In this document: one piece after another, positions 33,687 through 54,671 of the stretch | Layout of the letters: the number at the start of each line of letters is the position of its first letter | Numbering within the stretch: the first letter of the stretch is position 1 | Source: Nitrosopumilus sp. | GTDB taxonomy: Archaea; Thermoproteota; Nitrososphaeria; Nitrososphaerales; Nitrosopumilaceae | Reading direction: 5' to 3' | DNA: 64,000 nt | Assembly (NCBI GenBank): GCA_965197525.1 | Contig: OZ240211.1 | Coordinates: forward strand, 1 to 64,000 | Translations under genes and position numbers: made by a program | Notes under the pieces: generated by a model | The model's input: only the letters and a program-made list of their open reading frames with translations | What the model was told of the DNA's origin: nothing | The model's database searches: none

Positions 33687-33747
33687 ACTATTAAGTCTTC
33701 TTTGCCTACTGAAGGGAATTACATACTTGGATTACATTATACGTCAC

Positions 33748-33757
33748 TTATATATAA
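33748..33757 (+). promoter_or_regulatory. TATA box, reconstructed original tnpB promoter
   Basis: TTATATATAA would lie at about -29 to -20 from ATG 50600 once 33773-50595 is removed. Confidence 0.55.
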
Positions 33758-33772
33758 TACACAGACTATTAA

Positions 33773-35092
33773 CAGTTAACCCAAATGTCTCAAATTTGCC
33801 TGTTTTAAACACTATAAATCGTAAAAGCTATAAGACACTTCAAATGATATTGCATAGTGAACACAAACCACCTGAAGCGCAATATTAAAAATAACATACG
33901 CCTATTTCAAGATACCATTTCTGAGATCCAAACACAAGTGGAACCCTGTGTTCACATATCCAAGGCTGCCAACGCCACATATGATATCACGCATTTTATT
34001 ACCTGTATGATGAATGGTACTCTGAATGATGCATCTGTAAGTGGAAAGGCAGGCGATACACGTTTTGTAGGTGATGACCACTGCAGGCCAAAGGGAACAA
34101 GGCATTATCCCACGGGCGAATGGAACAGACTGATACTTGCCAAGATGAGTAAAAATGAGATTGAGAAATGCCTTGAAGATACGGTTAGAACTCAGATTGC
34201 AGTATTGGACAAAAACAGGTGGATTCCTGACAAAGGCATAGATATAGCGATAGATATGCACAAGATACTCAGGCACGACAAGAAATCAACTGGCGATCTA
34301 ATACATACAAAAGACAAGGGGCACGCAGGATACTATGAGAGATACATAACTGCACAATCAGTCACTTCAGGAATCAGACTGAATCTATGTGCGTATCACA
34401 TGCCTGCACTTGAATCCATAGACAATTTCGTGCGTAAAATCCTCGTTTCATGCCAAAATATTGGAGTCAAGATCAGATATGTCTTACTTGATCGCGAATT
34501 CTTCAACGCCAAAATTCTAGACATGATTGACAAGATGGGATTGTATTACATCACACCATGCAAGAATACGGATACTGTGGTACGATGTATAAGAAAATTC
34601 GATAAAGAGAACGGTCCTGCAGAATCCAAAGTTGAGATCGCAGGATATGATGGTACAGTAGCTGTATACCATATGATCATAGTGACAAGAAAGAAGAGAA
34701 AAAAGATCAAGAATCGCGAGCTCCGGCCGGAGGAGAGATACATCGGATTTTGCTACTAATCAACCCAGTGTAGACGTTGAGATCTATGCCAGCAGATGGG
34801 GCATAGAGACCGGCTACAGAATGTTAGAAAATATTAGAGCCAAAACCAAAAGCAAGAATTCTGCTGCCAGAATGTTCTGTTTTGTGTATTCTCTGTTGTT
34901 TTATAATGCGTGGGTGATGATCAACACGCTCTTATGGCGATCATGCATGGTTGGCTACGCCTAAAAAAACCGATAATCGCGCAGGGGATGATCAAAATAG
35001 CATTGGATAGAACGGTAACGAGATGATAATTCCGCCAGAGCCTCCACCTGACGCGATCTGGCCTTAGAATATGGAGACATTTGGGTTAACTG
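33773..35092 (+). mobile_element. ISH3-family IS, divergent copy (left arm of composite)
   Basis: Perfect 19-bp TIR CAGTTAACCCAAATGTCTC; own flanks ATTAA / ATCTA do not match each other. Confidence 0.9.
33857..35030 (+). pseudogene. ISH3 transposase, frameshifted
   Basis: IAIDMHKI, VLLDREFF; extra T in TTTT at ~34748 separates the YASRWGIETGYR-containing C-terminus. Confidence 0.85.
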
Positions 35093-35194
35093 ATCTATAA
35101 ACTTTATCTTAAATTCTACCATTTCTCGTCTGACATTCGCAAGCGCGCTTTTCAATTCTGCATTTTCTCTTCTCAGATCTGAGTTTTTGGCCAT
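35093..35194 (-). pseudogene. 5' fragment of a coiled-coil gene truncated by ISH3
   Basis: MAKNSDLRRENAELKSALANVRREMVEFKIKFID reads straight into the TIR (QLTQMS). Confidence 0.45.
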
Positions 35195-35380
35195 TTCTGA
35201 CTGTCGCCTTGATCGTTGACTTTATCATATTTGCCTTCCAAAAAACTACTATTTAGTAAGATTAGTTACAAAAATTTGGTAATACACAAAATAACCTACA
35301 TCAAATTTGACATAGAGATGCAACAAACTAATTTTCATGATTTAAACGCCTAAATGACGTGAACGCTTACCATTTTTGCG

Positions 35381-36422
35381 TCATTCCATCACGACAGCAC
35401 GTTGTAGCAGACGCGCCTGAGCAGCGGCCTTTGGACCCGCAGCGTCTTTGCGCAAATCATTGCAGTGAACATGACTTGAACGACGAGAACACGGACTATT
35501 ATACTGCACTGGTGGCACGTCTTCAAACTCTTCGGGGTTATTCTCCTGCCATCTGATCATCTCTGCCCTAGGACTGAATCCCCTTGCGACGTGGTTCTTG
35601 CAGGTGCAGATGACGGGTCTTCTGTCCGAGTCACGGATCATCTCGTAGTTCTTGTGTGCGTCATATCCTGCATCAAGCATCGCGCATCCGGTGCCGTCTG
35701 GAACATTCTCGAATCTCTCTCAGAATATGGGAGAGTCGTGCGCGTATCCTTTGGTGACTGCACAGGAGACGATCTTTCTTCCCTTGGAATCGACGATCAC
35801 GTATAATTTGACGAATTCGCGCCTGAAGACAAGTCCTCCTCTTGGCGTCTTCTTCCCAGTCTGCGTATTGGTTTATGGCAACCCCCGTGGAGTCGCCCAG
35901 AGGGAACCGCGCGCGTGGGATTCTGCCTGCCATTCCATTACTTTGTGCAGCCACCCATAATCTGCGATTACGGTGGCTGCGTGGCGCAGGCAGGATTTTG
36001 ATGGAGCGGTTTTTAATCCATACATGTGCAGTGTTCCCTGATGTGTCTGCAGGTATGAGACATGTTGACGGTATGAATGGCAGTAGAACTCCAGGTCTGT
36101 AAGGCATACCATGTATGGGATCATACGCACCTTGCCAGGGGGGTGTGGCAGATGGGTAGATTTCATACAGCAGGGCAGTGAGGGCCTTGATTTGCAATCT
36201 AGTTACGTGGCCCTCTCCCTCTCCCCCACCACTCCTCCATGTCTCGTATTCCTTGTAGTATCCGGCGGGGCGTTCCCATTTCTCGTCGTTGGGACTTGCT
36301 TTTGCATCGTTTCTTGCTCTTGCTGTGTTTCGTGTTTGTATCACGTTTTTTGTTCATCAAGCGGCGTGCGATCTGATCTTTGAGCTTTTCGCTGATTTTG
36401 AATCAAAAATTTGGACAACGCC
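35381..36422 (-). pseudogene. Degraded IS5-family transposase / IS remnant
   Basis: GDSTG, frameshifted RREFVKLYVIVDSKGRKIVSCAVT..HDS, MLDAGYD; possible end GGCGTTGTCCAA at 36411-36422. Confidence 0.75.
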
Positions 36423-36489
36423 GCTTGTAAATGTAAAAAAAGAATCATCAATGAGATTTTTTAAAATAGTATCTGAAAAACTAGATGCT

Positions 36490-39400
36490 TTAGGTGTTGT
36501 TCCCCATCACGTACTCTAATGCAACTCTAAACTCGTCTAGGGTTATCAGTCCTTTTACCACTAGTGGTGCAAGATCAGTCATGACCCAGGCAGGTATGTC
36601 TGCTCCCATGTGAGTCAGGCCCATAACAGCTAGCAGTTGATTGTCATCTGCTATCTCAGATTCAAATCCAGACCACATGCGCAGTACAAGCAATGCACGG
36701 TCATAGTCTGAGTCATCATCAAAAGTTTCAATCACAGGTTCTGGATTATCAGGTACTGCAGCAGGTGACCGGGGTTCTGGGTTCGCCTCTGCTACTTGGG
36801 GCTCTGGGTCTGCCTCCGTTGTTGCCTGGGGCTCTGGATCTACTTTTGAGGGTATGATGTTTAGCGCATCAACTATTATGACTATTGAAGACTGACGGTC
36901 TGCGTTCCAAGTTCTGATTACCATGTTGGTATTCCCTATCGCATCTGCAAACGTGATATCAAGTGCGACTGTCTTTTTATTGCGATCATCAGGGTCAGTT
37001 GATATAGTGATGGAGGCATCTGAGAACAGGTTATGAGGATCAACTATGTTGGTCTTGCCTCTGTTGTATTCCACGTATGTATCACTGTTCGTGTATGATA
37101 TGTCATCATCTTGCAGGTTCAGGTATACTGCAAAGTAGAGTATGTCAAGTCTGTCGTGTGCCGTAAAACTCATGGATATGGGTTGTTGGTCTACTGCAAC
37201 CTCCAGCGGCGTGGGATGATGGTTTACCCTGTTTTGAACATTGTAACTCTGGCCGTTTATCTCAAGTGTATCCACAGATGGTGGTGGTGCGGTACCTGAC
37301 TTTTTGGACTTGAGCAGTATGGTAGCATCAACAAATGATTCCAAAGGTTTGCCTGACTCGTCTACAACATTGCCTGTACCGCTGTCGTATGAGAGCGTGT
37401 CCCCACGAGACAGTGAACCGTCAAGTAGTAACGTAAGGGTGTTTGTGCCATTTCCGGTGATGGATTCCACTGTGACTGTACTACCAGAAGAAGAGGATAC
37501 TGTAAATCCGTTGAGGCCTGTTCCATTGATTTTGACTGGCTCAGAGAATGTCAGCGTTATAGAAGAGCCAGAGCCCCGTACAGATACAAGACGTGGAGCT
37601 ATGTCATTTACTGTAACTGATACCAGTTCAGATGCTGTGCCACCGTTACCATCCGAGACGGTCACATTAATGGAGTGTACACCGTCCTGGGACTGGTCAG
37701 GCCTCCAAGAGAACGAGCCTTCCCGGGTGATTGATGCACCACGTGGTATGTCCCCGTCAAGTGAGAATCTCAAAGAGTTAGGAGAGCCTTGATATATGTC
37801 GACGTCCCGGGCTGTTGCAGTAAACCTAAGCGTGTCTGTCTCATCTATGGTCTGTGCACCTATGGGATCAAGTCGTGGATTCTGATTTACCTCAGTTACA
37901 GTTATTGTGACGTTTTGCGAGTCTGTGCCTCCGTTACCATCAGAGACCTGTACGGTTATGGTGTGACGGCCATCCTGTGCCTCAGTTGGCGTCCATGAGA
38001 ACACTCCGGTGTTGGTATCCATCGCGGCACCGTCAGGTATCGGCTCGATAAGGGAGTATGTCCGGGCATCGTTATCATCAGGATCAGTTGCTTCAGCAGT
38101 GAATGTGAGGAGTGTAAGCTCATCTCCAGTCTGCGGTGAGATATTATTCAGTACGGGTAACTGGTTGACTGTGTAGGTCTCATTAGAGCCGATCACTGTC
38201 AGGTCAATCAGACTGTTGGTTGCAGTATCCTGTATGTCGTGGTTTTGTGCGATATCCAAGCCGATGGTTCCACTAGCGGTTACTGTGACTGTTACTCGGT
38301 ATGATGCACCGGAACCTGATACGCCAGATATTGTACCTGTACCGGAGCCCGTTACTGTAAAATCGGCATCATCCACATTGGTTACTGGTTCATCAAACGT
38401 GACAGCAAACACCAAGGTGGTATCAGTTGTGGATTGAGCTAGAGGGGTACCACGCAGTATGGAGGCAACGCGGGGCGGAGTGGTGTCTGTTACCGTGACT
38501 GTGTAGGTCTGATCAGAGCCGGTAGGTGCCAAGTTGGCCAAACGGTTGGTTGCGGTATCCTGTATGTCGTGGTTTTGTGCGATATCCAAGCCGATGGTTC
38601 CAACATTATCTACTGTGACTGTTACCCGGTATGATGCACCGGAACCTGATACGCCAGATATTGTGCCGGTGCCGGTGCCTGTTACTGTAAAATCGGCATC
38701 ATCCACATTGGTTACTGGTTCATCAAACGTGACAGCAAACACCAAGGTGGTATCAGTTGTGGATTGAGCTAGAGGGGTACCACGCAGTATGGAGGCAACG
38801 CGGGGCGGAGTGGTGTCTGTTACCGTAGTGCCTGTTACCGTAGTCTCTGTTACCGTGTAGGTCTGATCAGAGCCGGTAGGTGTCAGGTTGGCCAAACGGT
38901 TGGTTGCGGTATCCTGTATGTCGTGGTTTTGTGCGATATCCAAGCCGATGGTTCCAACATTATCTACTGTGACTGTTACTCGGTATGATGTACCGGAACC
39001 TGATACGCCAGATATTGTGCCGGTGCCGGTGCCTGTTACTGTAAAATCGGCATCATCCACATTGGTTACTGGTTCATCAAACGTGACAGCAAACACCAAG
39101 GTGGTATCAGTTGTGGATTGAGCTAGAGGGGTACCACGCAGTATGGAGGCAACGCGGGGCGGAGTGGTGTCTGTTACCGTGGGGGCGGTGGGATCAATAT
39201 CTTTGTTTTGCTCTACTTCCTTGTCAAGATATATGACATTGATGGCGCCGCGGTCTCGCCCGCTGTTATCATCTCGATAAGCACCAACTGCAAGGTCTGT
39301 CACCCCGTCGCCGTCAAGGTCGCCTATGGAAGCAACGGAGACGCCGAAATAGTCACTGTTTGATAGCGTGGGACCGTTTGTAGTGGAGTCGTTTATCTCT

Positions 39401-41958
39401 ACTGTGCTGTCTACCGTACCGTCAGTATTCATAAACATTATGTGTACTGCGCCGCGGTCTTGTCCGCTGTTATCATCTTGATAAGCACCAACTGCAAGGT
39501 CTGTCACCCCGTCGCCGTCAAAGTCGCCTATGGAAGCAACGGAGACGCCGAAATTGTCACTGTTTGATAGCGTGGGACCGTTTGTAGTGGAGTCGTTTAT
39601 CTCTACTGTGCTGTCTACCGTACCGTCAGTATTCATAAACATTATGTGTACTGCGCCGCGGTCTGATCCGCCGTTGTCATCTCCATAAGCACCAACTGCA
39701 AGGTCTGTCACCCCGTCGCCGTCAAGGTCGCCTATGGAAGCAACGGAGATGCCGAAATTATCATAGTTTAATAGCGTGGGACCGTTTGCAGTGGAGCTGT
39801 TTATCTCTACTGTGCTGTCTACCGTACCGTCAGTATTCATAAACATTATGTGTACTGCGCCGCGGTCTGATCCGCCGTTGTCATCTTGATAAGCACCAAC
39901 TGCAAGGTCTGTCACCCCGTCGCCGTCAAGGTCGCCTATGGAAGCAACGGAGATGCCGAAATTGTCACTGTTTGATAGCGTGGGACCGTTTGCAGTGGAG
40001 CTGTTTATCTCTACTGTGCTGTCTACCGTACCGTCAGTATTCATAAACATTATGTGTACTGCACCGCGCTCTGATCCGCCGCCGTTATCATCTTGATAAG
40101 CACCAACTGCAAGGTCTGTCACCCCGTCGCCGTCAAGGTCGCCTATGGCAGCAACGGAGATGCCGAAACGGTCACTGCTTGATAGCGTGGGACCGTTTGT
40201 AGTGGAGTCGTTTATCTCTACTGTGCTGTCTACCGTACCGTTTGTATTCATAAACATTATGTGTACTGCGCCGCTGTCTAGTTTGCTGTGGTCATCTCGA
40301 GCAGCACCAACTGCAAGGTCTGTCACCCCGTCGCCGTCAAGGTCGCCTATGGAAGTAACGGAGACGCCGAAACGGTCACTGTTTGATAGCGTGGGACCGT
40401 TTGTAGTGGAGTCGTTTATCTCTACTGTCCTGTCAACAATAAAGGCAACGCGGGGCGGAGTGGTGTCTGTTACCGTGGGAACTGACACATCGGTTACCGT
40501 GACGTCATAGGTGTCAAAAGCCGTGGCCCCGTCGTCGTCAGTAACAGTGAGGGTAAATGTAACTTGGGTGTCAGATGATACCTGTGACGCAGTGTACTGC
40601 AGGGTTGCTGCGTTACCGGACGTTATCGTAATAACAGATGTGTCATCCACGCTCCACGCGTATGTGGATATTGTACCATCAGAGTCAGAGGCAATACCCG
40701 TGAGCGTGCCGGATGCGCCCTCGTTGATTGTAGTGTCGCCGGTTATGCTGCTGATAGTTGGGGACTGGTTGGGGACTGGCACATTGTTTACCGTGACATC
40801 GTAGGTGGCAGATGCCGTGGCCCCGTCGTCGTCGGTAACAGTGAGGGTAAATGTAACTTGGGTGTCAGATGATACCTGTGATGCAGTGTATCGCAGGATA
40901 GCCGCATCGCCAGTCGTGATCGTGATAGTAGACGTATCATCCACGCTCCACAGGTACGAGGATATGTTGCCGTCAGAATCGGAGGCAATACCCGTGAGCG
41001 TGCCGGATGCGCCCTCGTTGATTGTAGTGTCGCCGGTTATGCTGCTGATAGTTGGGGACTGGTTGGGGACTGGCACATTGTTTACCGTGACATCGTAGGT
41101 GGCAGATGCCGTGGCCCCGTCGTCGTCGGTAACAGTGAGGGTAAATGTAACTTGGGTGTCAGATGATACCTGTGATGCAGTGTACTGCAGGGTTGCTGCG
41201 TTACCGGACGTTATCGTAATAACAGATGTGTCATCCACGCTCCACGCGTATGTGGATATTGTACCATCAGAGTCAGAGGCAGTGCCCGTGAGCGTGCCGG
41301 ATGCGCCCTCGTTGATTGTAGTGTCGCCGGTTATGCTGCTGATAGTTGGGGACTGGTTGGGGACTGGCACATTGTTTACCGTGACATCGTAGGTGGCAGA
41401 TGCCGTGGCCCCGTCGTCGTCGGTAACAGTGAGGGTAAATGTAACTTGGGTGTCAGATGATACCTGTGATGCAGTGTATCGCAGGATAGCCGCATCGCCA
41501 GTCGTGATCGTGATAGTAGACGTATCATCCACGCTCCACAGGTACGAGGATATGTTGCCGTCAGAATCGGAGGCAATACCCGTGAGCGTGCCGGATGCGC
41601 CCTCGTTGATTGTAGTGTCGCCGGTTATGCTGCTGATAGTTGGGGACTGGTTGGGGACTGGCACATTGTTTACCGTGACATCGTAGGTGGCAGATGCCGT
41701 GGCCCCGTCGTCGTCGGTAACAGTGAGGGTAAATGTAACTTGGGTGTCAGATGATACCTGTGATGCAGTGTACTGCAGGGTTGCTGCGTTACCGGACGTT
41801 ATCGTAATAACAGATGTGTCATCCACGCTCCACGCGTATGTGGATATTGTACCATCAGAGTCAGAGGCAGTGCCCGTGAGCGTGCCGGATGCGCCCTCGT
41901 TGATTGTAGTGTCGCCGGTTATGCTGCTGATAGTTGGGGACTGGTTGGGGACTGGCAC
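36490..41958 (-). CDS. C-terminal part of giant surface adhesin: PKD-like repeats, six FG-GAP repeats, three Ig-like repeats, two cadherin/He_PIG-like domains, conserved C-terminal domain
   Basis: ORF-track translation; begins inside a repeat with no signal peptide, so continuous with the upstream part. Confidence 0.85.
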   Translation of the reverse strand: MPVPNQSPTISSITGDTTINEGASGTLTGTASDSDGTISTYAWSVDDTSVITITSGNAATLQYTASQVSSDTQVTFTLTVTDDDGATASATYDVTVNNVPVPNQSPTISSITGDTTINEGASGTLTGIASDSDGNISSYLWSVDDTSTITITTGDAAILRYTASQVSSDTQVTFTLTVTDDDGATASATYDVTVNNVPVPNQSPTISSITGDTTINEGASGTLTGTASDSDGTISTYAWSVDDTSVITITSGNAATLQYTASQVSSDTQVTFTLTVTDDDGATASATYDVTVNNVPVPNQSPTISSITGDTTINEGASGTLTGIASDSDGNISSYLWSVDDTSTITITTGDAAILRYTASQVSSDTQVTFTLTVTDDDGATASATYDVTVNNVPVPNQSPTISSITGDTTINEGASGTLTGIASDSDGTISTYAWSVDDTSVITITSGNAATLQYTASQVSSDTQVTFTLTVTDDDGATAFDTYDVTVTDVSVPTVTDTTPPRVAFIVDRTVEINDSTTNGPTLSNSDRFGVSVTSIGDLDGDGVTDLAVGAARDDHSKLDSGAVHIMFMNTNGTVDSTVEINDSTTNGPTLSSSDRFGISVAAIGDLDGDGVTDLAVGAYQDDNGGGSERGAVHIMFMNTDGTVDSTVEINSSTANGPTLSNSDNFGISVASIGDLDGDGVTDLAVGAYQDDNGGSDRGAVHIMFMNTDGTVDSTVEINSSTANGPTLLNYDNFGISVASIGDLDGDGVTDLAVGAYGDDNGGSDRGAVHIMFMNTDGTVDSTVEINDSTTNGPTLSNSDNFGVSVASIGDFDGDGVTDLAVGAYQDDNSGQDRGAVHIMFMNTDGTVDSTVEINDSTTNGPTLSNSDYFGVSVASIGDLDGDGVTDLAVGAYRDDNSGRDRGAINVIYLDKEVEQNKDIDPTAPTVTDTTPPRVASILRGTPLAQSTTDTTLVFAVTFDEPVTNVDDADFTVTGTGTGTISGVSGSGTSYRVTVTVDNVGTIGLDIAQNHDIQDTATNRLANLTPTGSDQTYTVTETTVTGTTVTDTTPPRVASILRGTPLAQSTTDTTLVFAVTFDEPVTNVDDADFTVTGTGTGTISGVSGSGASYRVTVTVDNVGTIGLDIAQNHDIQDTATNRLANLAPTGSDQTYTVTVTDTTPPRVASILRGTPLAQSTTDTTLVFAVTFDEPVTNVDDADFTVTGSGTGTISGVSGSGASYRVTVTVTASGTIGLDIAQNHDIQDTATNSLIDLTVIGSNETYTVNQLPVLNNISPQTGDELTLLTFTAEATDPDDNDARTYSLIEPIPDGAAMDTNTGVFSWTPTEAQDGRHTITVQVSDGNGGTDSQNVTITVTEVNQNPRLDPIGAQTIDETDTLRFTATARDVDIYQGSPNSLRFSLDGDIPRGASITREGSFSWRPDQSQDGVHSINVTVSDGNGGTASELVSVTVNDIAPRLVSVRGSGSSITLTFSEPVKINGTGLNGFTVSSSSGSTVTVESITGNGTNTLTLLLDGSLSRGDTLSYDSGTGNVVDESGKPLESFVDATILLKSKKSGTAPPPSVDTLEINGQSYNVQNRVNHHPTPLEVAVDQQPISMSFTAHDRLDILYFAVYLNLQDDDISYTNSDTYVEYNRGKTNIVDPHNLFSDASITISTDPDDRNKKTVALDITFADAIGNTNMVIRTWNADRQSSIVIIVDALNIIPSKVDPEPQATTEADPEPQVAEANPEPRSPAAVPDNPEPVIETFDDDSDYDRALLVLRMWSGFESEIADDNQLLAVMGLTHMGADIPAWVMTDLAPLVVKGLITLDEFRVALEYVMGNNT
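38170..39180 (-). repeat. Three near-identical Ig-like domain repeats (DTTPPRVASILRGTPLAQ...)
   Basis: Repeated ~320-350 bp blocks. Confidence 0.85.
39230..40430 (-). repeat. Six FG-GAP/integrin-like repeats
   Basis: Six GD(L/F)DGDGVTDLAVGA motifs. Confidence 0.88.
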
Positions 41959-42720: not shown

Positions 42721-45700
42721 TCTGCGCAAGGGATCCGAATGCCCCGGGCGGGTTAAAGTCAAACATTACAGCAGGATCCGGGAGGAGAGGGATTACGTCC
42801 CTGCCTGGGCTCTTAAGGGCAGTGATCGTTGCCCCCCCCATCTCACCGTCAGGCGACAGTGAGTTTTGTGCAACATACTGGAGATCAGAGGATACGTCCG
42901 TACTCTGTGGCGCGTACCTGAAGGTAAGGATGTCGGTGCCGCTACCGGACAGATAGGGGGCCGTTCTGTGTTGTGGACTGACATCAAGCGTGAGTCGGGG
43001 CGTTCCGGTTACGGCCACTGGTTCTGAAAATTTGACTGTAATATCGACTGTCTGGCTTGATCCGTACGTGCCGTCTGCAGTGGTGGAGGACACGGCGCGG
43101 ATCAATACATCCTTGTCAAAGTACATGATGTGCACGGTGCCGTGATCCGTCCCGCCGTGGTCGTCGCCCCAAGCGCCTGCGGCAAGGTCCGGCACCCCGT
43201 CGCCGTCAAGGTCGCCTATTGCCGCGACGGATGCGCCAAAAAAGTCATCGTCTGACAGTACGGGGCCGTTTGCAGTGGAGTCGTTTATCTCGACTGTACC
43301 CTTTACCGTGCCGTTACCGTTCATGAACATGACGTGCACGGCGCCGTGATCCGTCCCGCCGTTGTCGTCGCCATCAGCGCCTACGGCAAGGTCCTGCACC
43401 CCGTCGCCGTCAAGGTCGCCTATTGCCGCGACGGATATGCCAAAATAGTCCTCGTCTGACAGTACGGGGCCGTTTGCAGTGGAGTCGTTTATCTCGACTG
43501 TACCCTTTACCGTGCCGTTACCGTTCATGAACATGACGTGCACGGCGCCGCGGCCCGGCCCGCCGTTGTAGTTGCCCCAAGCGCCTACGACAAGGTCTTG
43601 CACTCCGTCGCCGTCAAGGTCGCCTATTGCCGCGACGGATGCGCCAAAATAGTCCTCGTCTGACAGTACGGGGCCGTTTGCAGTGGAGTCGTTTATCTCA
43701 ACTGTGCCCTTTACAGAGCCGTTACCGTTCATGAACATGACGTGCACGGCGCCGCGGCCTTCCCCGCCGTTGCTGTCGCCATTAGCGCCTGCGGCAAGGT
43801 CCGGCACCCCGTCGCCGTCAAGGTCGCCTATTGCCGCGACGGATGTGCCAAAAAAATCATTGTTTGATAGTACGGGGCCGTTTGCAGTGGAGTTGTTTAT
43901 CTCGACTGTATCCTTTACAGAGCCGTTACCGTTCATGAACATGACGTGCACGGCGCCGTGATCCGTCCCGCCGTTGTCGTCGCCATTAGCGCCTACGGCA
44001 AGGTCCTGCACCCCGTCGCCGTCAAGGTCGCCTATTGCCGCGACGGATCTGCCAAAACCGTCATCGTCTGACAGTACGGGGCCGTTTGCAGTGGAGTTGT
44101 TTATCTCGACTGTGCCCTTTACAGAGCCGTTACCGTTCATGAACATGACGTGCACGGCGCCGCGCTTCTCCCCGCCGTCGTCATCTCCCTGAGCACCAAC
44201 TGCAAGGTCTGTCACCCCGTCGCCGTCAAGGTCGCCTATTGCCGCGACGGATCCGCCAAAATAGTCATAGTCTGACAGTACGGGGCTGTTTGCGGTGGAG
44301 TCGTTTATCTTGACCGTATCCTTTACAGAGCCGTTACCGTTCATGAACATGACGTGCACGGTGCCGTGATCCGTCCCGCCGTGGTCGTCGCCCCAAGCGC
44401 CTGCGGCAAGGTCCTGCACCCCGTCGCCGTCAAGGTCGCCTATTGCCGCGACGGATGCGCCAAAAAAGTCATCGTCTGACAGTACGGGGCCGTTTGCAGT
44501 GGAGTCGTTTATCTCGACCGTATCCTTTACAGAGCCGTCGCGGTTCATGAACATGACGTGCACGGCGCCGTGATCCGTCCCGCCGTTGTCGTCGCCATCA
44601 GCGCCTACGGCAAGGTCCTGCACCCCGTCGCCGTCAAGGTCGCCTATTGCCGCGACGGATATGCCAAAATAGTCCTCGTCTGACAGTACGGGGCCGTTTG
44701 CAGTGGAGTCGTTTATCTCGACTGTACCCTTTACCGTGCCGTTACCGTTCATGAACATGACGTGCACGGCGCCGCGGCCCGGCCCGCCGTTGTAGTTGCC
44801 CCAAGCGCCTACGACAAGGTCTTGCACTCCGTCGCCGTCAAGGTCGCCTATTGCCGCGACGGATGCGCCAAAATAGTCCTCGTCTGACAGTACGGGGCCG
44901 TTTGCAGTGGAGTCGTTTATCTCAACTGTGCCCTTTACAGAGCCGTTACCGTTCATGAACATGACGTGCACGGCGCCGCGGCCTTCCCCGCCGTTGCTGT
45001 CGCCATTAGCGCCTGCGGCAAGGTCCGGCACCCCGTCGCCGTCAAGGTCGCCTATTGCCGCGACGGATGTGCCAAAAAAATCATTGTTTGATAGTACGGG
45101 GCCGTTTGCAGTGGAGTTGTTTATCTCGACTGTATCCTTTACAGAGCCGTTACCGTTCATGAACATGACGTGCACGGCGCCGTGATCCGTCCCGCCGTTG
45201 TCGTCGCCATTAGCGCCTACGGCAAGGTCCTGCACCCCGTCGCCGTCAAGGTCGCCTATTGCCGCGACGGATCTGCCAAAACCGTCATCGTCTGACAGTA
45301 CGGGGCCGTTTGCAGTGGAGTTGTTTATCTCGACTGTGCCCTTTACAGAGCCGTTACCGTTCATGAACATGACGTGCACGGCGCCGCGCTTCTCCCCGCC
45401 GTCGTCATCTCCCTGAGCACCAACTGCAAGGTCTGTCACCCCGTCGCCGTCAAGGTCGCCTATTGCCGCGACGGATCCGCCAAAATAGTCATAGTCTGAC
45501 AGTACGGGGCTGTTTGCGGTGGAGTCGTTTATCTTGACCGTATCCTTTACAGAGCCGTTACCGTTCATGAACATGACGTGCACGGTGCCGTGATCCGTCC
45601 CGCCGTGGTCGTCGCCCCAAGCGCCTGCGGCAAGGTCTGTCACCCCGTCGCCGTCAAGGTCGCCTATTGCCGCGACGGATGCGCCAAAAAAGTCATCGTC

Positions 45701-48310
45701 TGACAGTACGGGGCCGTTTGCAGTGGAGTCGTTTATCTCGACCGTATCCTTTACAGAGCCGTCGCGGTTCATGAACATGACGTGCACGGCGCCGTGATCC
45801 GTCCCGCCGTTGTCGTCGCCATCAGCGCCTACGGCAAGGTCCTGCACCCCGTCGCCGTCAAGGTCGCCTATTGCCGCGACGGATATGCCAAAATAGTCCT
45901 CGTCTGACAGTACGGGGCCGTTTGCAGTGGAGTCGTTTATCTCGACTGTACCCTTTACCGTGCCGTTACCGTTCATGAACATGACGTGCACGGCGCCGCG
46001 GCCCGGCCCGCCGTTGTAGTTGCCCCAAGCGCCTACGACAAGGTCTTGCACTCCGTCGCCGTCAAGGTCGCCTATTGCCGCGACGGATGCGCCAAAATAG
46101 TCCTCGTCTGACAGTACGGGGCCGTTTGCAGTGGAGTCGTTTATCTCGACTGTACCCTTTACCGTGCCGTTACCGTTCATGAACATGACGTGCACGGCGC
46201 CGCGGCCTTCCCCGCCGTTGCTGTCGCCATTAGCGCCTGCGGCAAGGTCCGGCACCCCGTCGCCGTCAAGGTCGCCTATTGCCGCGACGGATGTGCCAAA
46301 AAAATCATTGTTTGATAGTACGGGGCCGTTTGCAGTGGAGTTGTTTATCTCGACTGTATCCTTTACAGAGCCGTTACCGTTCATGAACATGACGTGCACG
46401 GCGCCGTGATCCGTCCCGCCGTTGTCGTCGCCATTAGCGCCTACGGCAAGGTCCTGCACCCCGTCGCCGTCAAGGTCGCCTATTGCCGCGACGGATCTGC
46501 CAAAACCGTCATCGTCTGACAGTACGGGGCCGTTTGCAGTGGAGTTGTTTATCTCGACCGTATCCTTTACAGAGCCGTTACCGTTCATGAACATGACGTG
46601 CACGGCGCCGCGCTTCTCCCCGCCGTCGTCATCTCCCTGAGCACCAACTGCAAGGTCTGTCACCCCGTCGCCGTCAAGGTCGCCTATTGCCGCGACGGAT
46701 CCGCCAAAATAGTCATAGTCTGACAGTACGGGGCTGTTTGCGGTGGAGTCGTTTATCTCTACTGTGTTGTCGACAGAGCCGTTTCCATTGGTTTTCATGC
46801 CATTAATGTGGATTATGTGTACGGCGCCGCGGTCTGATCCGCCCTCGTCATCTTGATAAGCACCAACTGCAAGGTCTGTCACCCCGTCGCCGTCAAGGTC
46901 GCCTATGGAAGCAACGGAGACGCCGAAACTGTCATCGTCTGATAGCGTGGGACCGTTTGTAGTGGAATCGTTTATCTCTACTGTGCTGTTTATCGTACCG
47001 TCAGTATTCATAAACATTATGTGTACGGCGCCGCGCTCTGATCCGCCGTCGCCGTCATCTTGATAAGCACCAACTGCAAGGTCTGTCACCCCGTCGCCGT
47101 CAAGGTCGCCTATGGAAGCAACGGAGACGCCGAAATAGTCAACGTTTGATAGCGTGGGACCGTTTGCAGTGGAGTCGTTTATCTCTACTGTGCTGTTTAT
47201 CGTACCGTCAGTATTCATAAACATTATGTGTACGGCGCCGCGGTCTCGTCCGCGGTCGTCATCTCGATTAGCACCAACTGCAAGGTCTGTCACCCCGTCG
47301 CCGTCAAGGTCGCCTATGGAAGCAACGGAGGCGCCGAAATAGTCAACGTTTGATAGCGTGGGACCGTTTGCAGTGGAGTCGTTTATCTCTACTGTGCTGT
47401 CTACCGTACCGTCAGTATTCATAAACATTATGTGTACTGCGCCGCGGTCTGATCCGCTGTCGTCATCTCGATTAGCACCAACTGCAAGGTCTGTCACCCC
47501 GTCGCCGTCAAGGTCGCCTATGGAAGCAACGGAGGCGCCGAAGCGGTCAACGTCTGATAGCGTGGGACCGTTTGCAGTGGAGTCGTTTATCTCTACTGTG
47601 CTGTCTACCGTACCGTCAGTATTCATAAACATTATGTGTACTGCGCCGCGGTCTCGTCCGCCGCCGTCATCTCGAGCAGCACCAACTGCAAGGTCTGTCA
47701 CCCCGTCGCCGTCAAGGTCGCCTATGGAAGCAACGGAGACGCCGAAACGGTCATTGTCTGATAGCGTGGGACCGTTTGCAGTGGAGCTGTTTATCTCTAC
47801 TGTGCTGTCTACCGTACCGTCAGTATTCATAAACATTATGTGTACTGCGCCGCGGTCTGATCCGCCGCCGTCATCTCGAGCAGCACCAACTGCAAGGTCT
47901 GTCACCCCGTCGCCGTCAAGGTCGCCTATGGGAGTAACGGAGAAGCCGAAGCGGTCAACGTCTGATAGCGTGGGACCGTTTGCAGTGGAGCTGTTTATCT
48001 CCACTACGGAGTTTGGATACGCGTTGTTTGATGCGTACGCAGTATCCACACCAAAGCTTAGATGTATGTCGTGTATGCCAGGGGTGTGAACCGATAGCAC
48101 GAGGCTTGCGATGCCGTCGCACTGATAGTCCTCAAACGTAATGATCCCATCATGTGCTGTAGCATCCAGTATGGAGTCGTTGCCGCACAATACCCCCACA
48201 AACCCCACGTCGTCAGGAGAAGAGTCCCCAAACGTGGTGCCGTTTATTACAGAGATTGTTAGGTTATGGGTACCGTATGTCCTAAAGTTTATCGTCCACT
48301 CCCCGCCCAC
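42308..48310 (-). CDS. Central part of giant surface adhesin with 24 FG-GAP repeats
   Basis: 24 GDLDGDGV.DL..GA motifs (6 + 3x6), N-terminal unique domain, then PKD-like repeats. Confidence 0.87.
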   Translation of the reverse strand: MGGEWTINFRTYGTHNLTISVINGTTFGDSSPDDVGFVGVLCGNDSILDATAHDGIITFEDYQCDGIASLVLSVHTPGIHDIHLSFGVDTAYASNNAYPNSVVEINSSTANGPTLSDVDRFGFSVTPIGDLDGDGVTDLAVGAARDDGGGSDRGAVHIMFMNTDGTVDSTVEINSSTANGPTLSDNDRFGVSVASIGDLDGDGVTDLAVGAARDDGGGRDRGAVHIMFMNTDGTVDSTVEINDSTANGPTLSDVDRFGASVASIGDLDGDGVTDLAVGANRDDDSGSDRGAVHIMFMNTDGTVDSTVEINDSTANGPTLSNVDYFGASVASIGDLDGDGVTDLAVGANRDDDRGRDRGAVHIMFMNTDGTINSTVEINDSTANGPTLSNVDYFGVSVASIGDLDGDGVTDLAVGAYQDDGDGGSERGAVHIMFMNTDGTINSTVEINDSTTNGPTLSDDDSFGVSVASIGDLDGDGVTDLAVGAYQDDEGGSDRGAVHIIHINGMKTNGNGSVDNTVEINDSTANSPVLSDYDYFGGSVAAIGDLDGDGVTDLAVGAQGDDDGGEKRGAVHVMFMNGNGSVKDTVEINNSTANGPVLSDDDGFGRSVAAIGDLDGDGVQDLAVGANGDDNGGTDHGAVHVMFMNGNGSVKDTVEINNSTANGPVLSNNDFFGTSVAAIGDLDGDGVPDLAAGANGDSNGGEGRGAVHVMFMNGNGTVKGTVEINDSTANGPVLSDEDYFGASVAAIGDLDGDGVQDLVVGAWGNYNGGPGRGAVHVMFMNGNGTVKGTVEINDSTANGPVLSDEDYFGISVAAIGDLDGDGVQDLAVGADGDDNGGTDHGAVHVMFMNRDGSVKDTVEINDSTANGPVLSDDDFFGASVAAIGDLDGDGVTDLAAGAWGDDHGGTDHGTVHVMFMNGNGSVKDTVKINDSTANSPVLSDYDYFGGSVAAIGDLDGDGVTDLAVGAQGDDDGGEKRGAVHVMFMNGNGSVKGTVEINNSTANGPVLSDDDGFGRSVAAIGDLDGDGVQDLAVGANGDDNGGTDHGAVHVMFMNGNGSVKDTVEINNSTANGPVLSNNDFFGTSVAAIGDLDGDGVPDLAAGANGDSNGGEGRGAVHVMFMNGNGSVKGTVEINDSTANGPVLSDEDYFGASVAAIGDLDGDGVQDLVVGAWGNYNGGPGRGAVHVMFMNGNGTVKGTVEINDSTANGPVLSDEDYFGISVAAIGDLDGDGVQDLAVGADGDDNGGTDHGAVHVMFMNRDGSVKDTVEINDSTANGPVLSDDDFFGASVAAIGDLDGDGVQDLAAGAWGDDHGGTDHGTVHVMFMNGNGSVKDTVKINDSTANSPVLSDYDYFGGSVAAIGDLDGDGVTDLAVGAQGDDDGGEKRGAVHVMFMNGNGSVKGTVEINNSTANGPVLSDDDGFGRSVAAIGDLDGDGVQDLAVGANGDDNGGTDHGAVHVMFMNGNGSVKDTVEINNSTANGPVLSNNDFFGTSVAAIGDLDGDGVPDLAAGANGDSNGGEGRGAVHVMFMNGNGSVKGTVEINDSTANGPVLSDEDYFGASVAAIGDLDGDGVQDLVVGAWGNYNGGPGRGAVHVMFMNGNGTVKGTVEINDSTANGPVLSDEDYFGISVAAIGDLDGDGVQDLAVGADGDDNGGTDHGAVHVMFMNGNGTVKGTVEINDSTANGPVLSDDDFFGASVAAIGDLDGDGVPDLAAGAWGDDHGGTDHGTVHIMYFDKDVLIRAVSSTTADGTYGSSQTVDITVKFSEPVAVTGTPRLTLDVSPQHRTAPYLSGSGTDILTFRYAPQSTDVSSDLQYVAQNSLSPDGEMGGATITALKSPGRDVIPLLPDPAVMFDFNPPGAFGSLAQNKNIEIFTVPNQPPTISSITGNTTINEGASGTLTGIASDSDGNISSYLWSVDDTSTITITTGDAAILRYTASQVSSDTQVTFTLTVTDDDGATASATYDVTVNNVPVPNQSPTISSITGDTTINEGTSGTLTGTASL
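43100..46760 (-). repeat. Three near-identical 1224-bp units, each six FG-GAP repeats
   Basis: Identical landmarks at 43683/44907/46131 and 44281/45505/46729. Confidence 0.92.
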
Positions 48311-48353
48311 TACAGGATAGGACTGCGGGTTGAGTACGTCGATTCGCCCGTAC

Positions 48354-48566
48354 TCACGGTTCAGAAAACTGGCTGCCGACTGCTGTATCTCTGAGGTAGT
48401 TACCGTTACAGGTGTGGGGGGGGGGGCTGTCAGTTATCGTGATCACAGGGTCAGTCATATAGGCAGACGCAAAACTGACATCATAGTACTGGAACAGTAA
48501 CAAAGATACAGTCACTACCACAATGGCCATGACTGTCATAGTATGATGAATTCTTAATGTATTCAT
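48354..48566 (-). pseudogene. Signal-peptide-encoding 5' end of the giant adhesin, out of frame at a C11 tract
   Basis: Hydrophobic leader ending SFA-SAY; removing one C at 48416-48426 gives PPPTPVTVTTSEIQQSAASFLNREYGRIDVLNPQSYPVVGGEWTINF, joining ORF 42308-48310. Confidence 0.8.
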
Positions 48567-48870
48567 ATCACATTCCCACCATTATCATACAATAATCCAC
48601 AGGGACTATTTAAAAAGATTGTATATTCAACTCTGTTTCCTAATTACATGCAACACAGACACCCATCTGTGTGATTTTGCTTATGTCATTGCCTTCCCTC
48701 CTACACTGCGGTCTTTGTGGCGGGTTTTAGACTGATACACTATCTTTGGTGTGCCGTAGTATTCCCATTGGATAATAGCTCATTTTGACTATACACATTT
48801 TGTATGTGTTTACATCGTACTTGGAAAAATAAGAGATGTTCCCACAGTGTGTTAAACTTATGCCTAAATC

Positions 48871-50590
48871 CAGTTAACCCAAAAGTGAGCCTAATCTAAC
48901 GTCTAAAAATCAATGCGGTGCTTTCAAATATCGTCATCTTTGAGAAAAAGACAGGCTTGATGGCTATTGCGTATAGTTTAAAGATCCGTCTGCAGACAAG
49001 ACCGAACATGACAGCCTAATCTTCAGAAAAAGTACTGGCTTTTCTGATACTAGATGTATCAAACATTTTAAAAATATGAACAGTTTTTTATCCTATCTAT
49101 TTGTACATCTAACAGAACGTCTGAAATTTGATGTTTGATGTACGTCGTAGATGTCTAGTACGAACACAGCGATCCGATGTCAGGCGGCGTCTTATAGCGC
49201 GGTTCGTGCCGGGCAAGCACGGTTATTATCTCGATTCGCAGATGTGTCTGCGTCATGCGTTTTGTGTTCTTGTCTGCCGGCTTGGATGTCGCAGACATCA
49301 TCGCATTTATCATCACCCAAGCATTGAACATTACCACAGAGTACAAAAAGCAGAATATCCTGGATACGGTCTTGTTGCTGCGCGTCCGCGCCCTCATCTC
49401 TTCTATCATGCGGTATCCCGTCTCTATGCCCCATCTCTTGGAGTACAGTTCGGCATCCTGAATAGGCATGTTGGTGGCAAATCCGATGAACTCTTCTTCT
49501 GGACGTGTATGCACATCGTCTGATTTTTCCCCACTGCTGCTTTTCTTCCTCTTCCTCTTCTTCTTCTTCTTACGCTCGGTTATGATTATGGTATACTTTA
49601 CTGACACTCCGTCGGCATTTGTGATGTATAGACTCGATACCGCCTTCCGTCTTCCCGCAACAAATTCTGCGATTGCATCCACTACGACATCTGTGTTCTT
49701 GCACGGTACAAGGTAGCCCACATCCATCTTCTCAAGGGCCTCAAAGACACGAGTGGAAAAGAATTCGCGGTCAAGCAATACGGCCCTGATATTACATCCC
49801 ACACTGCGGCATATTGCAATCAGGTCGCGTACAAAACCAGGAACATCCTCAAGTGCTCCCATGTGTAGGACTCCCAGTACAAGACGCGGTCCGCCGTCAA
49901 CGCACTGCGCTGTGATGTACCTCTCAAACGTCCCGGTTCCATTATTTCTTCTTGAACGCGTCAGATCGATGCCGGGTTCTTTGTCCCATCGCGGGATCAG
50001 GTGCATATCTATTGCAATTACCATGCCTTCGTTTGAAACCTGTCCGAGTGCGCGCACCGCATCAAGCTGCAGGCGCACAGAATTGGCAAAATCTTTCATC
50101 ATCTCAGTCCTGTCAATCTTGGCAAGAAGTCCGTTGAACCATTCGTCAGTGGGTGATGATGCCCGATGATGCGTTCCTGCACCCGTACTCCACTCAATAT
50201 GATTCCGTACCGCCGAAGCCGTGGCCCCTACAGAAGAGCCGTTGACTGTAGCCCACATCATGCCCCTGTTAAAGTCGTCAAGCCCGTATGTCCTGTTGGG
50301 GCTGTCCGATATTTTGATGCACGAGCAGATGCTGTCCTCGGCTGCCCTTACTGCTGCATCACTGCGCCTTTTATGCTGGCCGAACCATGATGATGAGAGA
50401 CGAATGTTTTGATTTGACACGTCATATTGTCATAAAAGTTATTTTTATGGTATTGTATTAGGCATTGCATAGAATTATGTCAAAATTTGTTCAGGCATGA
50501 AGTGGTGCTGGTACACAACAAAGGCAGTTGTTAATTTCATATGTGTTAAGGGAAATGATTCATATGAATTGCTTACTTTTGGGTTAACTG
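48871..50590 (-). mobile_element. ISH3-family IS, copy 2 (right arm of composite), near-identical to copy 1
   Basis: Same TIRs and internal sequence as 20001-21714; flanks AAATC / ATTAA unmatched. Confidence 0.92.
49155..50420 (-). CDS. ISH3-family DDE transposase (intact)
   Basis: 421 aa, nearly identical to 20285-21544. Confidence 0.9.
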   Translation of the reverse strand: MSNQNIRLSSSWFGQHKRRSDAAVRAAEDSICSCIKISDSPNRTYGLDDFNRGMMWATVNGSSVGATASAVRNHIEWSTGAGTHHRASSPTDEWFNGLLAKIDRTEMMKDFANSVRLQLDAVRALGQVSNEGMVIAIDMHLIPRWDKEPGIDLTRSRRNNGTGTFERYITAQCVDGGPRLVLGVLHMGALEDVPGFVRDLIAICRSVGCNIRAVLLDREFFSTRVFEALEKMDVGYLVPCKNTDVVVDAIAEFVAGRRKAVSSLYITNADGVSVKYTIIITERKKKKKRKRKKSSSGEKSDDVHTRPEEEFIGFATNMPIQDAELYSKRWGIETGYRMIEEMRARTRSNKTVSRIFCFLYSVVMFNAWVMINAMMSATSKPADKNTKRMTQTHLRIEIITVLARHEPRYKTPPDIGSLCSY

Positions 50591-50599
50591 ATTAACTGG

Positions 50600-52168
50600 A
50601 TGGAAAAAGAAATAGAAGATTTTATTTATAGAACAGTGATTGTAAAACCAAGGCAGACAAAAGAACTGTCATTGAAGGCACGCAGGATTGCAAACTTTCA
50701 GACGTATTTTTTCAACATGGGCGTAGAGGCAGGACTGGTTGAAAAATATGACAAAATCAAGACAAGCCGTACCATTACTGACATACATCACACCATGCCA
50801 TGGAGCAACAGATATCACACCAATGTGGCAACAACTGCGTTCCAACAGGGGCATGATACGGCAGACAAACATTTGAAATCCTGCGCAAAAAAACGCAGAG
50901 TACGAAACTGGGCAAAAAAGACTGGTGACAAGAACCACAACTGGCACACGTCATTTAAAAATCTCAAACCAAACAAATGGATTGACAGAAACAGTTTGTT
51001 CAGAAACGCCAAAAATGCAAAACATGCATCCATAACAGTAAACGGTAAGCATCCCTCGCTAAGGATGGGAAAGTGGAAAAAACTGTACATGAATCTGCCT
51101 GGTATGGGTCAGGTGGAGCTGTTGTCGTCTTTGAATAATCTTCCAAAGCAACTGGCATGTGAAAGAGACAAAAACAGCACTAGCAAATTCTACCAGACCA
51201 ACATTGTATCATACAGGCTTGTAGAGAACACCAAAAAAATCACTGTCAATACAAACGATTCGAACCGCACGTTTGAGATCCATCTGACACTAAAAATACA
51301 GAGACCTAAAAATACGGATCGTACAGTCGTATGCGGAATAGACATGGGGGTTAAGAGATCCCTAGTCGTTCATGACGGAATAAATGCCGATTTTTACAGG
51401 ACACCTTATTCCTGTAGGAGAAAGAAAGACGATGTAGTCTCAGAACAACAGTCAAAAAGAGACGGCCACAAACTGCATAGTAACAGATGGAAAAAAGAGG
51501 ATCGCAAACTGAAGAGGATGAAGAAAACACTCAACAACAGAAGAACCGAGCACAATAATTTCCTTGCCAAACAGATTGTGATGAGAACAGGAGTGATAGT
51601 CATGGAAAAACTAAACATTGGCAATATGACTGCAAAAAATGAAAAGCGGAAAAGCGGCCTTAACAGGGAGATTTACGGGGCAGGTATGGGAAGAATGGGG
51701 GATAGAATAAAAATGACTGCCGAAAACCACGGAACCAAAACGCTTGAGATTGTTCCGCATTATACCAGCATAACGTGTAGTAAGTGCAATATGATCAACA
51801 GCAACTCTAGAACTACCAGGGATGCGTTTCAATGCGTATACTGTGGATTTTTGTGCGATGCAGACGATAACGCCAGCACAAACATCAGACATTACGGACT
51901 TCCGTGCATACGAAGGCTCCCGCTTGTAGACAGATATGGAAACTACAGGTGTGACAGCATGGAAAATATTATTTTAGCTAATAAAAATGGCACATCTAAT
52001 AGTGTCAGTGTTATTAGGGGCGGTAGGGATTATCGTCACAAGACAGAAGAATCAAAATATGGCTTACACCATGTTGTTTCTAAAAAAGACGGCAAGAACC
52101 AAGCTGTGAATGATTTGTTGGACTGTCAGAAAAAAACCTTGGTGTATAAATGTAACCTAGGTATATAA
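50600..52168 (+). CDS. tnpB: TnpB-family RNA-guided nuclease, 522 aa, RuvC triad intact
   Basis: RuvC-I GIDMG, RuvC-II VMEKL, PHYTSITCSKC / CVYCG zinc finger, RuvC-III DADDNAS; stop codon lies inside the right TIR. Confidence 0.9.
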   Translation: MEKEIEDFIYRTVIVKPRQTKELSLKARRIANFQTYFFNMGVEAGLVEKYDKIKTSRTITDIHHTMPWSNRYHTNVATTAFQQGHDTADKHLKSCAKKRRVRNWAKKTGDKNHNWHTSFKNLKPNKWIDRNSLFRNAKNAKHASITVNGKHPSLRMGKWKKLYMNLPGMGQVELLSSLNNLPKQLACERDKNSTSKFYQTNIVSYRLVENTKKITVNTNDSNRTFEIHLTLKIQRPKNTDRTVVCGIDMGVKRSLVVHDGINADFYRTPYSCRRKKDDVVSEQQSKRDGHKLHSNRWKKEDRKLKRMKKTLNNRRTEHNNFLAKQIVMRTGVIVMEKLNIGNMTAKNEKRKSGLNREIYGAGMGRMGDRIKMTAENHGTKTLEIVPHYTSITCSKCNMINSNSRTTRDAFQCVYCGFLCDADDNASTNIRHYGLPCIRRLPLVDRYGNYRCDSMENIILANKNGTSNSVSVIRGGRDYRHKTEESKYGLHHVVSKKDGKNQAVNDLLDCQKKTLVYKCNLGI

Positions 52169-52227
52169 TTCCCCTACTGAATATTATCACAAACAGCTTT
52201 TTTAAATGGCGATACAAACCATTGATT

Positions 52228-52566: not shown

Positions 52567-52941
52567 TTACTAGTGTATATTCTTCAGTCTTTATTTACGA
52601 TATTTAGGGAATTATATACACGAGTAGTCATCCCCCATGTCTTTTCTTGGCGTTCTGAAAAAGTCAAACGGCTTCTCGTCAGAAGAACCTTCTTCATTGG
52701 TTGACGGATTCAAACCATCCCCATTCTTGCGCATATAGCAACGTGCACAAGTTTCTGTAAATGATATTTTATGACCATCATAGGCATAATGCCTCTTGTC
52801 TGGGGAATATGCCAAAAGCAAAAAAAAAAAAAAAATGCATGGAAGATTAAAATTCAGATTCATGTATGGCTATACATACCACATTGGAAAAAAATGCAGG
52901 CACCAACATGATACGTACAGAAGATCAAGCTGTTCGTACAA

Positions 52942-54598: not shown

Positions 54599-54671
54599 CC
54601 AAAAAAAAAACAGGGTTCAGGTTACTATTTTTGATCACAAGATAATTATATCATACTCTATTACATAACAC

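Follow-up and report, generated by a model that had tools for sequence, protein, structure and literature searches.

A tnpB gene carried by what is very probably a non-autonomous IS1595-type transposon in a Nitrosopumilus genome

TnpB is the ancestor of Cas12. Its accepted biological role, to restore a transposon that has excised without a scar, was established with elements of the IS200/IS605 and IS607 families. Those of IS200/IS605 lack inverted terminal repeats, leave their target unduplicated and need the Y1 transposase TnpA, and IS607 elements have neither inverted ends nor duplications (PMC13565253). What benefit a nuclease could bring to a DDE transposon that leaves a duplication is a question raised in a 2026 review (PMC13565253). 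Altae-Tran et al. (2023, PNAS; PMC10691335) describe six DDE-associated TnpB branches (DDE-1 to DDE-6) with inverted terminal repeats, in which tnpB is no more than 250 bp away from an end of the transposon; solo TnpBs that share these ends would be mobilised in trans. The DDE partner families named there and in the 2026 review are IS630, ISL2, and IS1031. In eukaryotes, DNA transposons carrying Fanzor1 have been described (Bao and Jurka, 2013, PMC3627910). The target duplication of the IS1595 family is 8 bp (PMC10045372), and the carriage of passenger genes has been reported for part of this family (Siguier et al., 2009, as cited in PMC3129680). Here, we analyzed a window of 64,000 nucleotides, the first 64 kb of the 2.21-Mb single-contig genome of Nitrosopumilus sp. 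(39.6% G+C; 99% complete), in which an element located at 33714-52173 carries a tnpB gene. This element is very probably a non-autonomous DDE transposon of the cut-and-paste IS1595 family (ISNwi1-like), whose only cargo would be tnpB and a guide-RNA scaffold and which would be moved in trans.

The 8-bp sequence CTACTGAA was present both at 33706-33713 and at 52174-52181, bounding the element. The inverted ends (33714-33738 and 52149-52173), which start with GGGAATTA (left GGGAATTACATACTTGGATTACATT; right, read inward, GGGAATTATATACCTAGGTTACATT), were complementary at 21 of 25 positions, the four mismatches being all transitions, and the match reached about 30 columns when one gap was allowed. 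Between these ends we found a 59-bp left end, an insert (33773-50590), and then tnpB (50600-52168). The insert is a 16.8-kb composite transposon made of two IS4/ISH3-like insertion sequences (ISs) in inverted orientation, with CAGTTAACCC-type ends in common and a 5-bp duplication (ATTAA) outside, which enclose two giant PKD/FG-GAP repeat protein genes. Subtracting the composite and one ATTAA left exactly 1637 bp, collinear without any gap with four other copies of the genome. The sole gene of this 1637-bp element is tnpB (522 aa), with its ATG 63 nt from the left tip and its stop codon 5 bp from the right tip; the element encodes no DDE_Tnp_IS1595 transposase and is thus non-autonomous. A previous interpretation made from the letters of the window (hereafter the sequence-only reading) had described the 8-bp repeat, the inverted ends of about 30 bp with their transition mismatches, and the 1637-bp unit with TnpB as its single product, all of which we recovered. 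It had also proposed that sui1 and the UPF0148 gene are rejoined across about 100 bp when the unit is removed, and in 11 of the 13 relatives examined these two genes were indeed adjacent and divergent, their aligned 5' ends being 84-106 nt apart. The features of the window copy are as follows.

33689-33694, plus strand: TATA-like host motif TATTAA, with TAA at -14 to -12 before the left duplication
33706-33713, unstranded: target-site duplication CTACTGAA, left copy, 8 bp
33714-33743, plus strand: left terminal inverted repeat (GGGAATTACATACTTGGATTACATT...), in agreement with the IS1595-type end consensus at 12 of its 15 strongly conserved positions
33714-33772, plus strand: left end, 59 bp, containing a TATA-like box of the element (TTATATATAATA, 33748-33759), a putative promoter
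33768-33772, unstranded: ATTAA, left copy of the 5-bp duplication of the composite
33773-35092, plus strand: IS4/ISH3-like IS A, left arm of the composite, whose 19-bp inverted ends (CAGTTAACCCAAATGTCTC) are perfect and whose transposase frame is broken
36490-41958, minus strand: composite cargo, PKD / FG-GAP / Ig-like repeat protein, 1822 aa
42308-48310, minus strand: composite cargo, FG-GAP repeat protein, 2000 aa, with 204-nt tandem units
48871-50590, minus strand: IS4/ISH3-like IS B, right arm of the composite, whose DDE_Tnp_1 transposase (421 aa) is intact
50591-50595, unstranded: ATTAA, right copy of the 5-bp duplication of the composite, ending 4 nt before the tnpB ATG
50600-52168, plus strand: tnpB, 522 aa, with RuvC D248/E336/D422 and zinc finger intact and the stop codon within the right inverted repeat
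51988-52173, plus strand: predicted guide-RNA (omega RNA) scaffold, with five conserved helices in 51988-52127 and a terminal hairpin
52144-52173, minus strand: right terminal inverted repeat (inward GGGAATTATATACCTAGGTTACATT...), matching 13 of the 15 strongly conserved consensus positions
52174-52181, unstranded: target-site duplication CTACTGAA, right copy, 8 bp

The composite inserted after the element, 4 nt upstream of the tnpB start. Since it sits between tnpB and the TATA-like box at 33748-33759, the tnpB gene of the window copy is probably cut off from its own promoter. This copy is otherwise whole, with the tnpB frame, both ends, and the RNA region intact.

The ends of the element are abundant in this genome: the 13-mer GGGAATTAYATAC, with at most one mismatch, occurred 12+12 times, versus 1+1 for a reversed control, an excess well beyond chance. 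We recovered seven copies, five of them intact (1637 bp), one being a 386-bp derivative with an internal deletion and one being decayed, with an insertion of about 1.3 kb. The sequence-only reading had suggested looking for different duplications around other copies, and each of the seven was flanked by a different perfect 8-bp duplication:

33714-52173, window copy: CTACTGAA
545581-547217 (genome coordinates, as below): TAAAAAAA
874687-876323: AATCAATT
879513-881149: AATTCAAT
1029182-1030818: CTAAATCA
562158-562543, deletion derivative: ATGTTAAC
1330018-1332960, decayed copy: GTAATCAA

The copy at 879513 was compared with public sequencing runs. In run X4, from a related strain whose flank is about 95% identical, one contig corresponded to an empty site, with the left flank and a single AATTCAAT joined straight to the right flank; exactly the element and one duplication are missing there. 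The same run contained a full copy elsewhere (on a 10-kb contig), with GCCATATG on both sides. The element is a real multi-copy mobile element that has been mobile since the divergence of related strains, and it withstood the refuting conditions that the sequence-only reading had set.

Two genes of this genome encode IS1595-family transposases (PF12762), one intact (615175-616176; 333 aa; 114.6 bits) and one truncated (1394720-1394956). A GGGGATTATATAC end (GGGGATTATATACATGGGTATACTTGG) precedes the intact gene by about 1 kb, at 614150, and the truncated gene is preceded, equally far away, by the same end at 1395933. The expected place of the right end of the intact transposase element is occupied by a GGTTCTGT-ended tnpB element. 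Related Nitrosopumilaceae genomes encode homologues 71-72% identical to the intact transposase. In genomes of the same genus, homologues of this transposase were adjoined by GGGRATTAYATA-type ends; only such single ends were found beside transposase genes in these genomes, and no complete IS1595 copy. A wider set of homologues in species-representative genomes comprised 80 loci (37-87% identity), mostly in bacterial metagenome-assembled genomes, with the sponge-associated groups Poribacteria, Dehalococcoidia, Latescibacterota, Binatia, and Thermohalobaculum among the sources. At 36 of the 80 loci, the transposase gene was located inside GGGRATTATATAC-type inverted ends with a perfect 8-bp duplication; these 36 elements had the end consensus GGGaaTTATATAC and encoded no TnpB. 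The ends of the tnpB element matched the consensus GGGaaTTATATACntnAnTanCCaa, built from 27 distinct end pairs of PF12762-encoding elements, at 12 (left) and 13 (right) of the 15 strongly conserved positions, and their first 13 bases were essentially identical to it. They also fit the ends "ggnnatTAT" that ISfinder lists for the ISNwi1 group. Passenger genes were present in the autonomous IS1595 relatives as well (DNA methylase fused to HNH or Mrr, RhuM, P63C, T5orf172).

Searches of the single-contig, 99% complete genome gave no match to Y1 TnpA (PF01797) or to serine recombinases (PF00239), and neither IS256 (PF00872) nor ISL3 (PF01610) transposases were found in it. The sequence-only reading had proposed a non-autonomous DDE element carrying tnpB, with IS1595 among the candidate partner families, and had suggested a search for a DDE transposase with the same type of ends. 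The proposal is supported by the duplications, the ends, the IS1595 transposase of the genome and the lack of Y1 or serine TnpA; the end consensus and the 8-bp duplications point to IS1595 as the partner family, and an intact gene of this type does lie behind a GGGGATTATATAC end.

Many of the bacterial metagenome-assembled genomes contain IS1595-family elements (loci L088-L166) in multiple copies, with the same ends and 8-bp duplications and with transposases 37-56% identical to the archaeal one, which suggests a spread across domains within one habitat.

The TnpB of the element belongs to a small clade (about 19 clusters at 35% identity or more in a large protein collection), and relatives above 78% identity were present only in this genome among 41 relatives. 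All the clade members whose DNA was examined exhibited the same architecture, and none of them had a transposase inside its ends. These members are listed below.

L167, L168, and L169: TnpB 54%, 42%, and 41% identical; 1737-1777 bp; ends of the GGGGCTTATATA / GGGAATTATATAC type; perfect 8-bp duplications
L187: TnpB 56%; same end type as L167-L169; duplication 8/8
L189: TnpB 76%; same end type as L167-L169; duplication 7/8
Two other relatives: TnpB 77% and 80%; same end type as L167-L169; duplication not matching
Same-genus genome, four copies: TnpB 34%; 1503 bp; ends GGGAATTATATACGTAAGTTAC; three perfect duplications and one 7/8
Second element of this genome, 1984842-1986191: TnpB 31%; 1350 bp; same kind of ends; duplication 7/8

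The genome that contains the 34% identical TnpB family also encodes a 72% identical IS1595 transposase. The association between tnpB and IS1595-type ends is old and stable. The sequence-only reading had spoken of a captured tnpB; tnpB is indeed the cargo of a DDE element, with the qualification that the capture is an old event, since such ends were already present in all the relatives examined, including those with a TnpB of only 34% identity. It had also considered that homologous tnpB copies could turn out to have IS605-type ends and no duplication, and the relatives examined shared the inverted ends instead. The copy with the 80% identical TnpB, on a metagenome contig, has no matching duplication, and some 440 bp upstream of it we found a 105-aa fragment of an IS1595 transposase (L184:681-998); the two element types may thus form a rearranged cluster there.

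The TnpB protein matched the Pfam families OrfB_IS605 and Cas12f1-like_TNB with 48.0 and 48.9 bits, above the cut-offs. In agreement with the sequence-only reading, which had claimed an intact RuvC triad and zinc finger, D248, E336, and D422 aligned with D191, E278, and D361 of ISDra2 TnpB, and both CxxC pairs of the zinc finger (CxxC...CxxC) were present. The 522-aa frame was kept in all five full copies, among which variable sites were more numerous at third codon positions (52, versus 32 and 20 at the two others), and the pairwise ratios of nonsynonymous to synonymous divergence (dN/dS) ranged from 0.18 to 0.51 over codons 1-430, most of them between 0.2 and 0.3. This pattern of substitutions shows that TnpB is under purifying selection. 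Because the catalytic residues are intact and selection is purifying, TnpB would be a working RNA-guided nuclease.

The last 92 tnpB codons behaved differently, with less overall variation, no third-position bias, and a depressed synonymous divergence (dS). We aligned the right ends of 11 elements whose TnpBs are 41-100% identical and observed blocks that were invariant at every codon position. The consensus RNA structure contained 38 pairs, with 95% of the cells paired, and double-sided changes were present in 16 pairs, versus 1-7 when the partners were slid by 1-3 columns. Several invariant G-U pairs were specific to the sense strand. In the terminal hairpin, 52137-52143 (CCTTGGT) pairs with 52155-52161 (ACCTAGG), the latter being within the right inverted repeat, and the same stem was present as CAATAGT/ACTATTG in L169, whose TnpB is only 41% identical. 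The last 190 nt or so of the element are thus predicted to form an omega-RNA scaffold, conserved and covarying. Since this scaffold ends at the tip of the element, the guide would consist of the duplication and the right flank. Rfam gave no match on the element, and the argument for an RNA rests on the alignment because the single-sequence fold of the last 294 nt gave only z = -2.1. In the assembled contigs of a sponge metatranscriptome run (X5), four pieces of the element were covered, and one 437-nt contig comprised the last 186 nt of the element followed by 251 nt of a different flank; neither was used as evidence. The start of the 437-nt contig coincides with the start of the first predicted helix, and the contig cannot fix the ends of the RNA.

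A second signal was found in the target flanks. In 10 of 17 left-side flanks of this clade, the triplet TAA, part of a motif (WWWTAA) resembling a TATA box, occupied exactly positions -14 to -12 relative to the duplication, versus 0-3 flanks at any other offset. The count rose to 14 of 17 when a shift of one or two bases was tolerated. The right-side flanks of the same clade exhibited nothing comparable. The TATA-like motif was present at the same distance beside archaeal IS1595-type ends without TnpB, and the flanks of the 36 bacterial relatives that bear a transposase had no motif (at most 0.18 bit at any position). At three of the seven sites in this genome, a co-oriented host open reading frame starts 33-40 nt past the duplication. 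We infer from these flanks that integration or survival takes place next to archaeal promoters and that the TATA-like motif is not a target-adjacent motif (TAM). The WWWTAA sites listed are window 33689-33694, genome (G000) 614150, 1395933, and 891809, and loci L077, L074, L080, and L067.

A more specific scenario, which we consider rather doubtful and put forward tentatively, is that in Nitrosopumilus-type archaea IS1595-type elements integrate at a fixed distance just downstream of TATA boxes, with the tnpB-only forms always facing away from the box, so that the host promoter would read into tnpB and the guide RNA, with its last hairpin formed by the inverted repeat, would be read into the new flank. 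If true, promoter-targeted integration in archaea would be joined to an RNA-guided nuclease that has become adapted to how a DDE transposon lives, and prokaryotes would have their own counterpart of the Fanzor-bearing transposons, one that chooses its targets in a manner not yet described.

Other origins of this architecture can be considered. Elements with tnpB only are usually filed under IS1341 (PMC13565253), and the locus could correspond to an ordinary IS200/IS605-type (IS1341-group) tnpB element located inside, or recently inserted into, an IS1595-type miniature inverted-repeat element, the ends and the duplication being those of the carrier; short TnpB-free elements with the same ends do exist in the genome (e.g., 165 bp at 891809-891973). 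However, separate IS605 ends could not fit, since the ATG is 63 nt from the left tip and the stop codon is within the right inverted repeat, and covarying bases of the repeat form part of the last conserved RNA hairpin. In addition, the same tight architecture is found in relatives down to 34% TnpB identity and no Y1 TnpA was found in the genome. This explanation is largely refuted, and we regard it as very improbable. Nor do we give more credit to a mobilization by IS6/IS240-like transposases, which also produce 8-bp duplications and for which the genome has eight PF13610 matches, including one complete element (746475-748444) with an 8-bp duplication. The ends of the latter start with GGTTCTGTG, unlike GGGAATTA, and it is the IS1595-type consensus that matches the tnpB element over the first 13 bases. 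When the eight PF13610 loci were searched, none of them had GGGAATTA-type ends and only one had clear ends, and an IS6/IS240-like partner was rejected.

A last possibility would dispense with any separate transposase. The RuvC domain of TnpB has an RNase H-like fold, as in DDE transposases, and TnpB, alone or with its RNA, could move the element by itself. Such a role would fit with the lack of a transposase inside the ends of the 12 or more clade members examined, with the incomplete state of the transposase-bearing copy in this genome, and with the one-sided motif at a fixed distance beside the insertions. It is nevertheless extremely unlikely in view of the 36 IS1595-transposase elements that have the same end motif and 8-bp duplication without TnpB, and of the archaeal IS1595-type ends that adjoin the TATA-like motif and also lack TnpB. 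We thus favor a non-autonomous IS1595-type transposon moved in trans.

Several observations weigh against this conclusion or parts of it. The mobilization in trans is inferred. Both transposase-bearing elements have lost their right end, such that there is no complete autonomous copy in this genome, and the end of the transposase element itself begins with GGGG versus GGGA for the ends of the tnpB element. The copies differ from each other by 1.5-5%, which means that activity may have stopped. The sole RNA-library contig over the right end could be due to DNA carry-over. Finally, a comparison of 12 sites of the clade gave no consensus for the five bases (-1 to -5) that immediately precede the duplication. 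The usual geometry with a TAM next to the guide, which a homing role needs, was therefore not seen in this family.

With these reservations, the life cycle of the IS1595-type tnpB element could be as follows. An IS1595-type DDE transposase supplied in trans, for which the intact 333-aa gene at 615175-616176 is the candidate, would cut and integrate the element. The guide RNA would be transcribed from the last 190 nt or so, its last hairpin coming partly from the right inverted repeat, and the guide itself would be read from the duplication and the right flank. TnpB could then raise the persistence of the element, for instance by cutting unoccupied alleles that would be repaired from the occupied copy; this step is weakly supported, because no TAM was seen next to the target for this element family.

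The genome contains other elements of interest. Repeated DNA of at least 300 bp makes up about 18% of it (400 kb), and it encodes dozens of tnpB genes and neither Y1 nor serine TnpA. A second, abundant tnpB-only family comprises about 38 copies of about 1.3 kb (e.g., G000:C1:182311-183642, 635341-636672, and 2206174-2207504), whose TnpBs (about 400 aa) are 21-23% identical to that of the window. Their 26-bp inverted ends start with GGTTCTGTTGGGTTAAC (GGTTCTGT-type) and they are flanked by 8-bp duplications. In this second family, all 14 copies whose duplications are intact had T at -2, as part of a W-T-R motif that immediately precedes the left duplication; a TAM would be expected to have this geometry. 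Its candidate transposase partners are IS6-like, or a second IS1595-like gene at 338494-339303. The 165-bp TnpB-free miniature element at 891809-891973 mentioned above has the same kind of ends as the window element (GGGGATTATATA) and its own 8-bp duplication (TTTCATAT).

Parts of the composite were also found elsewhere. IS A has a 99% identical copy at genome 1471269-1472591. The composite occurs once more at genome 1459849-1472591, where one of its arms is truncated, and the right-arm IS is present alone, with 97% identity, at window 20001-21714. Past the UPF0148 gene (window 52607 to about 54047), a solo GGGAATTATATACACGAGTAGTC end, similar to that of the element at genome 1984842 (TnpB 31% identical), is followed by broken minus-strand frames, and window 54048-54602 is a fragment of another IS, 95% identical to 1702816-1703371. 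The region 52607-54047 is apparently a decayed second tnpB element truncated by this IS fragment.

The general arrangement, tnpB in a DDE transposon, is already published, and the IS1595 partnership was not found in the literature searched: none of it connects TnpB with IS1595, nor did we find this pairing described for the TnpBs of Nitrosopumilus or of sponge symbionts. The parallel with Fanzor-bearing transposons drawn by the sequence-only reading holds for the arrangement, and not for the novelty of the concept, already present in Altae-Tran et al. (2023; PMC10691335). This element family offers a clean natural case for asking what a nuclease does in a DDE transposon, since it moved after related strains had diverged, its ends are defined, a candidate transposase and an empty site are at hand, and its predicted guide RNA shares bases with the inverted repeat. 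More generally, the sampled copies of both main tnpB families of this genome had DDE-style ends and the genome has no TnpA; filing "solo" archaeal tnpB genes under IS200/IS605 by default is not warranted.

The element can finally be compared with the known systems. As in the DDE-associated TnpB branches, tnpB is bounded by inverted repeats and its 3' end lies close to a transposon end, the stop codon being 5 bp from the tip, within the 250 bp used for these branches. The differences from the DDE-associated TnpBs, as the accessible part of their description presents them, are the probable IS1595 partner, the 8-bp duplication, the archaeal host, and the lack of a transposase in cis in all the members examined. 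The element shares the end motif (GGGAATTAT...), the 8-bp duplication, and the carriage of cargo with the ISNwi1-like group of IS1595, but it has no transposase gene inside, and its cargo is an RNA-guided nuclease with a predicted scaffold interwoven with the right inverted repeat. It resembles the IS1341 group (IS200/IS605) in having tnpB as its only gene and a predicted structured RNA region at the 3' end, whereas its inverted repeats of 25-30 bp, its 8-bp duplications, and the lack of Y1 TnpA in the genome are unlike IS200/IS605. Since neither IS200/IS605 nor IS607 elements have inverted ends or duplications, the element is a member of neither family. As with the Fanzor1 transposons of eukaryotes, a protein of the TnpB family is the cargo of a transposon with inverted repeats that makes target duplications and encodes, or depends on, a DDE transposase; unlike them, the host here is a prokaryote and the protein is an ordinary TnpB according to its Pfam and PDB matches.

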